Positions 18,797-20,855 of a stretch of DNA of 64,000 nt are shown here, piece by piece (positions within the stretch are counted from its first letter, which is position 1; the number at the start of each line of letters is the position of its first letter). Origin of the DNA: Gammaproteobacteria bacterium Ga0077536 (GTDB taxonomy: Bacteria; Pseudomonadota; Gammaproteobacteria; Ga0077536); NCBI GenBank assembly GCA_001464935.1, contig LNEL01000064.1:75567-139566 (forward strand), in the 5' to 3' direction. The notes beneath the pieces are model-generated. The model was given only the letters and a program-made list of their open reading frames with translations, did not search any database and had not been told where the DNA came from. The position numbers and the translations under genes are program-made.

Positions 18797-20855
18797 TCAG
18801 CCGAACAGCGAACTGCCGAAATGGAAGCACAGGAACGCGCCCGCGTAGCCGAGCCCTGTCATGTACAGCCAGGAGGCCAGCGGCCAGCGCCAGCTGTTGG
18901 TTTCGCGCCGGATCACGGCCAGCGTCGAAATGCACTGCAGGCACAGCGCGTAGAACACCATCAGGCCGATGACCATCGGCAATGTGAAGACCAGCGTCCC
19001 GTCGAGGTGGCGGGCGTCCCGGATGCGGTCAATCAGGCGCTGTTCGCCGCCGGCGTCGGCGTCTTCGACCGCGTACAGCGTGCCGAGCACGGCGATCACC
19101 ACTTCGCGGGCGGGAAACGACGCAATGACCGCGGCCGTGACCTTCCAGTCCCAGCCGAGCGGTGCGAACACGGGCTCCACGGTGCGGCTCATGCGGCCGA
19201 GGTAGCTGTCGGCAATCGGCGGGGCGTCGGAGACCCCGCCGTCGAGCGTCACCCGCGGAAACGACGCCAGGGCCCAGATCACGAGCGCGACGGCAAAGAT
19301 GATCGTGCCGGCCCGCTTCATGAATATTTTGACCCGGCCCAGCAGTTTCACGGCCACCGAGCGCAGCTGCGGCAACCGGTACGGCGGCATTTCGAGCAGG
19401 AAGCGGCTGCGCGGGCCGCTGAACGCCAGGCGGTTGATCAGGAAGGCGGTGAAAATCGCGCCGACCATGCCGAGCAGGTAGAAGCCGAGCAACACGAGAC
19501 CCTGCAGGTTCACCAGCCCGCCGAGGTAGGTTTTCGCGGGCACGAATGCCGCGATCAGCAGCGCATAGATCGGCAGGCGCCAGGCGATCGCGCGGATTGC
19601 CAATCACGCGCGTGCCCATGATGCCAGGCACGGCACAGGCGAAGCTCGACAGCATCGGGATGAACGACTGGCCTGACAGTCCGCACCAGCGCATCAGGCG
19701 GTCGACGACGAAGGCCGCACGCGACATGTAGCCGGAATCCTCGAGCACGATGATGAAGGCGAACAGCAGCACGATCTGCGGCAGGAACACGATCACGCTG
19801 CCGACGCCGGCAATCACACCGTCGATGATGAAACTCCTGAACAGGCCGGCCGGCAGCACGCCGCGCACCATGTCGCCGAGCGCGCCAGCACCGGTTTCGA
19901 TCAGGTCCATCATCGGTGTCGCCCAGGCGAAGACCGACTGGAACACGATGGCCATCGCCAGCAGAAAGGCGATCGAGCCGTAGACCGGGTGGTTCAGGTA
20001 GCGATCGAGCGCCTCGCGCCAGCCCGGGTTGCGCGTTTCACGGCGTTCGACCGCGGAGACCACGGTGTTGATCCAGCTGTAGCGATCGCGCGCTTCGAGC
20101 GTCGCGAGACTGCGGCCCTGCGCGAGCGTGTGGCGCAGAGCCTGCAGCCGGGTGCGCAGCTCTTCGCCAGCGCGCTCCACGAGACGGCGTTCGGCATAAC
20201 CCTGATCGTCGATCAGCGCCCGTTCGACCTCGGCTGGCGCGGCGTCGATGCCGCGCGCGGCGAGTTCGCTGCTGAGGGTCGTCGCGGCTTCGAGCAGGCC
20301 GGGATTGATGCGCAAGGGGCTCGGCTTGCCGTTGGCAATCGCGGCGGCGAGCGTCGTGCGCAACTGCTCGAGGCCCTCGCCCTGGGCGGCGGCGATCGGC
20401 ACCAGTGGCACGCCGAGTGCTGTCGCGAGTTTCGGGAGGTCGAGCGTGATGCCCTGGGTTTCGAGCAGGTCGGTCATGTTCAGCGCGATCACGACCGGCA
20501 GCCCGATTTCGAGCACCTGGCTGGCCAGGAACAGATTTCGCCGCAGGTTCGTCGCGTCGACGATCAGCAGCACCGCATCCGGGCGCCCGACCTCGCCGAC
20601 GCGCCCCAGCAGCACATCGACCGTGACCATTTCATCCGGCGACTGCGCGCTGAGCGAGTAGGTACCTGGCAGGTCGACGACGTCGACTTCGCCGCCCGGC
20701 AGCAACAGGCGGCCGACGACGTGTTCGACCGTCACCCCCGGGAAATTCCCGACGCGCTGCTTGAGGCCGGTCAGGGCATTGAACAGTGTGCTCTTGCCGG
20801 TGTTCGGATTGCCGATGGTGACGACGACCGAACGTCGCGCGACGGGGCTGGTCAT
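18797..20855 (-). pseudogene. feoB: ferrous iron transporter FeoB, frame-disrupted
   Basis: The N-terminal G-domain and first membrane segment ([11 protein letters not shown]...[23 protein letters not shown]) read in one frame, which then runs into Arg/Pro-rich nonsense. The remaining membrane domain ([18 protein letters not shown]...) reads in another frame (track ORF 18797..19603). The junction is at about 19570-19590. Confidence 0.6.

Follow-up and report, generated by a model that had tools for sequence, protein, structure and literature searches.

A 38-nucleotide gap divides feoB between two reading frames in a gammaproteobacterial contig

What does a feoB gene that cannot be read in one frame represent, when it lies in a feo operon that otherwise appears intact? 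In the 64,000-nt stretch of DNA analysed here (hereafter the window), feoB follows two feoA genes on the minus strand and is spread over two frames, raising the question of whether the organism has lost the gene, whether it decodes the gene in some unusual way, or whether the recorded sequence departs from the genotype that predominates in the population from which it came. We address this question by comparing the recorded gene with its homologues, with an intact allele on an otherwise identical contig, and with the contigs of other assemblies that reach the same site.

Results

Two minus-strand frames share the recorded feoB

That feoB is divided between two minus-strand frames at a CGCCTG-G-CGCCTG junction (19560-19610), as the original prediction proposed, is borne out by the sequence itself, by its ORFs, by Pfam and by tblastn (Table 1). 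Across the junction the minus strand runs from ATG GGC ACG CGC GTG ATT GGC through AAT CCG CGC GAT CGC CTG to a lone G, and on through CGC CTG CCG ATC TAT GCG; the junction sequence in the window is GATCGCCTGGCGCCTGCCGATC, with GATCGCCTGGCG|CCTGCCGATC as its two sides. The 5′ ORF (19029..20855, minus strand; 608 aa) contains FeoB_N (PF02421; 1.7e-54, residues 11-167; Pfam), including a GNPNTGKS G-domain motif that, together with related positions, is invariant in our FeoB alignment. Its native sequence ends at ...NPRDRL (Leu425, 19581-19583), past which it turns, just as had been described, into Arg/Pro-rich nonsense, and the first Gate profile is matched in this ORF at positions 1-79 of 104 only (Pfam).

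The remainder of the membrane domain does continue in another frame. FeoB sequence restarts at RLPIY (Arg codon from 19579) within a second ORF (18797..19603, minus strand), which carries FeoB_C (PF07664; 2.5e-15) and the second Gate (PF07670; 1.5e-15; Pfam) and in which the feoB frame is one base out of step with that of the 5′ part. Each copy of CGCCTG was said to encode Arg-Leu in its own frame; this too is correct, the two pairs corresponding to R424-L425 and R439-L440 of the intact gene described below. GC content at third codon positions peaks in the N-terminal frame upstream of the junction (0.86) and in the C-terminal frame downstream of it (0.90). A tblastn search of the window with intact FeoB (P0001) returns exactly two HSPs, one in frame -3 covering residues 1-444, in which true identity stops at residue 425, and one in frame -1 covering residues 439-698 at 100% identity. 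The recorded feoB, lying in frames -3 and -1, is thus not the single frame of about 700 codons that characterizes the gene, and the same search finds no second feoB in the 64-kb window.

Table 1. Features of the feo locus in the window
Feature	Coordinates	Strand	Basis
feoB 3′ part, codons 439-698 and stop (RLPIY... to ...SSLFG*)	18797..19579	-	Pfam; 100% identity to P0001 residues 439-698
Out-of-frame read-through tail of the 5′ ORF, 183 Arg/Pro/Ala-rich codons	19029..19580	-	ORF translation; homologue-free
feoB deletion junction, GCG trinucleotide, with 38 nt missing within or beside it	19578..19580	-	blastn and brute-force placement
feoB 5′ part, codons 1-425 (G domain, helical domain, first part of Gate 1)	19581..20855	-	Pfam; 100% identity to P0001 residues 1-425
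feoA, second copy, 75 aa, intact, stops 2 nt before the feoB start	20858..21085	-	Pfam FeoA 4e-21
feoA, first copy, 97 aa, intact	21090..21383	-	Pfam FeoA 1.2e-14
Putative control region, promoter-like and Fur-box-like site	21408..21465	-	Consensus matches only

An otherwise identical contig carries the missing 38 nt

The best protein match, P0001, is an intact FeoB of 698 aa encoded on contig JALHNP010000008.1 of GCA_022843415.1 (L001); it equals the two parts in the window fused together, save that 13 further residues, ATILAAPFMTCSA, separate NPRDRL from RLPIY. Window and L001 have the gene order icd-aceK-feoA-feoA-feoB-aroG in common and are 100% identical in DNA sequence over 11,278 and 2,707 nt (13,985 aligned nt), the sole difference being a 38-nt segment, GCGACGATCCTCGCCGCGCCGTTCATGACCTGCTCGGC (one of four equivalent placements), which is present in L001, as is the 698-aa product, and absent, again with that product, from the window. 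The original prediction had estimated that roughly 38 nt were missing, and against L001 the shortfall is exactly 38 nt, or 13 codons minus 1 nt. Its accompanying estimate, a loss of about 12 residues from the first gate motif, was right in pointing to the first Gate and slightly low in number, the count being 13 (residues 426-438).

The two blastn blocks share 3 nt of the window, with 35 nt of L001 left unaligned, and in a brute-force test 38-nt deletions from L001 11276-11279 all reproduce the window, which yields the four equivalent placements. In the intact allele the segment has the ends CTGGCGACGATCC and CTGCTCGGCGCGCCTGCC, and the breakpoints share a GCG/GCG microhomology of 3 nt, a length expected in 2.3% of random 38-nt deletions within feoB. 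The conspicuous CGCCTG hexamers of the junction, by comparison, are spaced 45 nt apart in the intact gene versus 7 nt in the window. In-register slippage between the two CGCCTG(G/C)CGA repeats would have cost 45 nt and preserved the frame, whereas 38 nt were lost; judged by this spacing, the repeat pair is not the breakpoint. A role for DNA structure, in the form of hairpin-mediated slippage or sequencing dropout, was likewise considered and rejected. Single-stranded DNA at the site folds at -19.2 kcal/mol, with a GGCG/CGCC stem at the breakpoints in the minimum-free-energy hairpin, and this is unexceptional against dinucleotide shuffles (z = -0.37; 73 of 200 fold at least as well), the value against simple shuffles being z = -1.8.

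The deletion removes conserved Gate 1 residues and displaces the frame

Among 45 aligned FeoBs, 59-93% identical to P0001, seven of the 13 lost residues are invariant (T427, A431, P432, F433, T435, C436 and A438) and five more are at least 90% conserved. C436 lies within the motif PFMTCSARL of P0001; the mutagenic primer used for P. aeruginosa C429S codes PFMS(C>S)GARL, and C436 is therefore homologous to Cys429 (PMC4847171), a conserved Gate-1/TMH4 cysteine that has been proposed to line the pore (PMC4847171). The first Gate of the recorded gene is accordingly incomplete, with residues 426-438 gone and this conserved cysteine among them. The PDB holds NFeoB entries only and no structure of full-length FeoB; an AF2 model of P0001 (mean pLDDT 79.4) places one helix at 421-436 and the next at 441-450, in which case the deletion would take about two thirds of one helix together with the connecting turn.

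Because a one-base frame shift adds to the loss of residues, translation of the recorded gene would leave the native sequence after residue 425 and append 183 residues of nonsense. The final 260 codons lie in the wrong frame and have no credible start of their own, the earliest possible start of the 3′ ORF being a TTG inside the 5′ ORF that would begin the protein in the middle of a helix. Taken as it stands, the recorded sequence codes for no working FeoB.

By descent, the window gene is a member of the FeoB family. Its parts are 59-100% identical to hundreds of gammaproteobacterial FeoBs, and it matches the family (FeoB_N, Gate, FeoB_C, Gate; P. aeruginosa FeoB, Q9HW43) in domain order, in its G-domain motifs and in having feoA upstream. 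Where the recorded gene differs from the family is in two defining features that are missing, a complete Gate 1, from which the 13 residues are absent, and a single frame.

The remainder of the feo operon is intact

Pfam confirms that the feoA-feoA pair ahead of feoB is as intact as it had looked on first inspection, and a protein identical to the second FeoA occurs on eight public contigs. Upstream of the pair lies a sigma-70-like promoter candidate, ATGACA-17-TAAGAT (21465..21437, minus strand), the sole match in 18600-21600, where 0.1 would be expected. Directly downstream of the promoter candidate is a Fur-box-like, AT-rich site (21426..21408, minus strand) that agrees with the E. coli consensus at 12 of 19 positions, and scores of at least 12 on this consensus are found at only 19 of the ~128,000 positions in the window. 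Iron control of the feo operon through this putative site is plausible, if only tentatively so at such a level of agreement. The locus is the organism's normal feoAAB operon, with feoB recorded 38 bp short.

The lesion is absent from relatives

All of the 120 homologues listed are single-frame proteins of about 693-718 aa, with the exception of one 533-aa fragment, and the shortened junction occurs in none of the 45 FeoB homologues aligned. When GTDB species representatives were scanned with P0001, every one of the 80 loci listed gave a single-frame match, the best of them 84% identical and none from the same species. Alignment to orthologues, a check that the original prediction had itself suggested, therefore turned up no relative in which a shortened junction is read in one frame. 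Since the otherwise identical contig has an intact gene and every homologue is single-frame, the lesion is not a feature of the lineage. Nor does the gene have the several or shared lesions of an old pseudogene: it bears one lesion, which no relative shares, and no further damage is present in feoB, feoA or the promoter, identity being 100% elsewhere.

No match to the 183-aa out-of-frame tail is found among 5.8 billion predicted proteins. Exact look-up likewise gave no record of the 608-aa frameshifted product, nor of two distal window ORFs, for which start-codon calls may differ. A gapped-pattern scan of JGI metagenome contigs for the deleted or the intact junction, a low-power approach that is uninformative either way, returned 10 chance matches only. 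Exact look-up of a 319-aa protein encoded elsewhere in the window (30118-31077) gave a match also on a contig of 0.2-1 Mb, maybe from a closely related genome; this size class is absent from the exact look-ups of FeoA, AroG and Icd.

Contigs of other assemblies end at the junction

Other assemblies of the same drinking-water-filter population were reached through exact matches to proteins of the window. Two contigs of JGI 3300002461 approach the site from opposite sides. AADWTP_10009953 is 100% identical to window 7660-19551 and stops 27 nt past the junction, at 19551, while AADWTP_10002552 is 100% identical to window 31085-19578 and beyond 19578 continues into 32 of the 38 intact-specific nt (...GCGACGATCCTCGCCGCGCCGTTCATGACCTGCTC), where it ends. 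An ENA contig, k127_208909 (SRR2905841, PRJNA301005; activated-carbon metagenome), stops 16 nt short of the deletion, at window 19594. Two assemblies hence contribute three contig ends, on contigs of 2.8-34 kb, to an 81-nt span around the feoB junction. Such clustering is very unlikely to be due to chance, and the site must therefore have been difficult in the underlying data. The window could not have arisen as an end-to-end merge of the two JGI contigs, 26 window nt, CCTGCCGATCTATGCGCTGCTGATCG, being absent from both. Contig 8 of GCA_022843415.1 stops elsewhere, at window 16874, inside a periplasmic-binding-protein gene; the window itself runs on through all of the positions at which public contigs stop (19551, 19578 plus 32 nt, 19594 and 16874).

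The intact allele is found on two independent records, fully in GCA_022843415.1 and partly on the JGI contig, and the deletion in the window only; the population that the window represents thus also contains an intact allele. Across 23.4 kb (7660-31085) the window has no other difference from the JGI and GCA contigs. With no other damage, the lesion must be either very young or non-biological. Finer variation is nonetheless apparent in an ENA single-run contig (L102), which differs from the window at four positions in 17.2 kb (99.977% identity; 24322, 27416, 31497 and 31499), and at 24322 and 27416 GCA_022843415.1 sides with the window against it. These differences indicate either SNP-level microdiversity in the source population or low-coverage consensus errors.

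The Ann Arbor study of drinking-water biofilters (PRJNA301005) generated 101-bp HiSeq reads (PMC4863621 and supplement) and assembled them by IDBA-UD co-assembly at mink 50 followed by per-bin re-assembly at mink 20 (PMC4863621 supplement). From the 100% identities we infer that the window probably derives from this project.

Discussion

The original prediction left feoB as either a pseudogene or an assembly error, and this joint claim is supported by the 38-nt gap relative to a 100%-identical contig and by the single-frame state of the homologues. Within it, we slightly favour the explanation that the deletion is a non-predominant genotype, either a jump during library PCR or a rare variant, that was promoted by the assembler. 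The intact path would have been hard to assemble at the feoB junction, its branch would have dead-ended and been clipped as a tip, and minority or artefactual reads bearing the deletion would then have been followed as the sole uninterrupted path, even at low depth. Several observations are consistent with such a course: L001 is otherwise 100% identical to the window and has an intact FeoB; the lost residues, including the Gate-1 cysteine, are highly conserved; all three contig ends are about 35 nt or less from the junction; the deletion allele is on no other record; and 23.4 kb are otherwise free of differences. Bin re-assembly at mink 20 (PMC4863621) would, if the inferred link between window and project holds, let a low-depth through-path replace a broken major path. 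The contig ends, moreover, are ragged, one falling 16 nt before the deletion, one 32 nt into the intact branch and one 27 nt beyond, and therefore fit a coverage hole better than a two-allele bubble. At a clean bubble of that kind, contigs would stop at the branch point. What tempers our preference is that a junction k-mer does not normally enter a de Bruijn assembly unless reads contain it; deletion-bearing reads probably exist, and they could stem from real cells.

The same consideration lends weight to a genuine deletion, in which feoB truly lost 38 bp in the sequenced cells through replication slippage or a microhomology-mediated event between the GCG triplets, leaving a nascent pseudogene that is possibly segregating. 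We give this explanation a little under an even chance. Few random placements would show the 3-nt microhomology, which suits slippage in vivo, though it suits polymerase jumping during library PCR equally well. Microdiversity in the population makes a real segregating allele plausible, a two-allele branch would also break contigs at the site, and the ABC-type uptake cluster near by could supply part of the iron in an oxic filter. The contig ends, however, lie off the branch point, the JGI co-assembly went beyond the left breakpoint along the intact branch, the sole other assembly that passes through the site is intact, and neither a second record of the deletion allele nor any further decay of feoB, feoA or promoter accompanies the lesion. 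That a real loss-of-function allele of feoB segregates with the intact allele in one drinking-water biofilter population is accordingly possible, and somewhat doubtful. If true, the segregating allele would capture Fe(II) uptake in the course of being lost, in an oxic habitat that offers little ferrous iron or makes FeoB costly.

Explanations in which the recorded sequence is both accurate and functional fare far worse. A programmed +1 frameshift at CUG-G-CGC could in principle produce a 685-aa FeoB, since skipping the single G joins DRL to RLPIY in frame, and in known cases such as prfB a one-base forward shift would likewise join the frames seen in the window; the intact operon, with its promoter-like site and both feoA genes, would also suit a gene still in use, whether recoded or split into two ORFs that act as subunits. 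We nevertheless consider recoding or a functional split gene very improbable. A joined protein would be without 12 residues conserved at 90% or more, among them the Gate-1 Cys and the bulk of a helix, and the arrangement is seen in none of the homologues compared (120 listed, 45 aligned and 80 listed genomic loci). A programmed site should be conserved, whereas the nearest genome is plainly in frame; unlike established +1 frameshifting, the shift in the window is unconserved in relatives, has no regulatory logic and comes with conserved residues lost, so that neither conservation of the site in orthologues nor any regain of residues is found. The window contains no Rfam frameshift element, or indeed any Rfam family, and separate subunits are difficult to reconcile with a 3′ ORF that starts, mid-helix, at a TTG inside the 5′ ORF. 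Less credible still, and indeed excluded, is the reverse error, with the window correct and the 38 nt in GCA_022843415.1 a spurious insertion: the formal symmetry of an indel favours it, and nothing more, whereas the 38 nt restore the frame, code residues conserved in every FeoB homologue examined and, for 32 of them, recur on the independent JGI contig.

On whichever side the origin of the deletion falls, the window feoB is an ordinary broken gene copy of the very common single-indel class, with nothing novel about it. It matches the frameshifted genes of draft and metagenome-assembled genomes in every respect compared (a single indel, an otherwise undamaged conserved gene, microhomology at the breakpoint and near-identical genomes in which the gene is intact); nothing sets it apart from them, and the multiple lesions of an old pseudogene are absent. 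The lesion reveals no new biology. Annotators should label the feoB of this record as frameshifted or disrupted, and because an otherwise identical genome carries the intact allele, the record is no basis for inferring that Feo-type uptake is absent. More generally, where the major path through a site is broken, metagenome assembly may let a minority or artefactual indel pass into the contig.

Genomic neighbourhood

Directly downstream of aroG (17660-18721) is an ABC uptake cluster of four genes (14136-17657, minus strand), encoding a Peripla_BP_2 protein, a FecCD permease, an ABC ATPase and a second Peripla_BP_2 protein; gene calls and Pfam labels were taken from the identical JGI contig, AADWTP_10009953 (L002). 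Its domain content suggests an importer of siderophore, haem or cobalamin type, which could provide an alternative route for iron. No tRNA or tmRNA genes were found in the 64 kb, and no Rfam family at the gathering threshold. Immediately upstream of the feo operon are icd (isocitrate dehydrogenase, 431 aa) and aceK (ICDH kinase/phosphatase, 582 aa on L001) at 21497-24557 (minus strand), themselves preceded by genes for a PAS/HisKA sensor kinase and a response-regulator-PAS-GGDEF-EAL protein (24.8-28.4 kb). Farther along, the plus strand holds an ORF of 1470 aa for an Lhr-type helicase (34754-39166).
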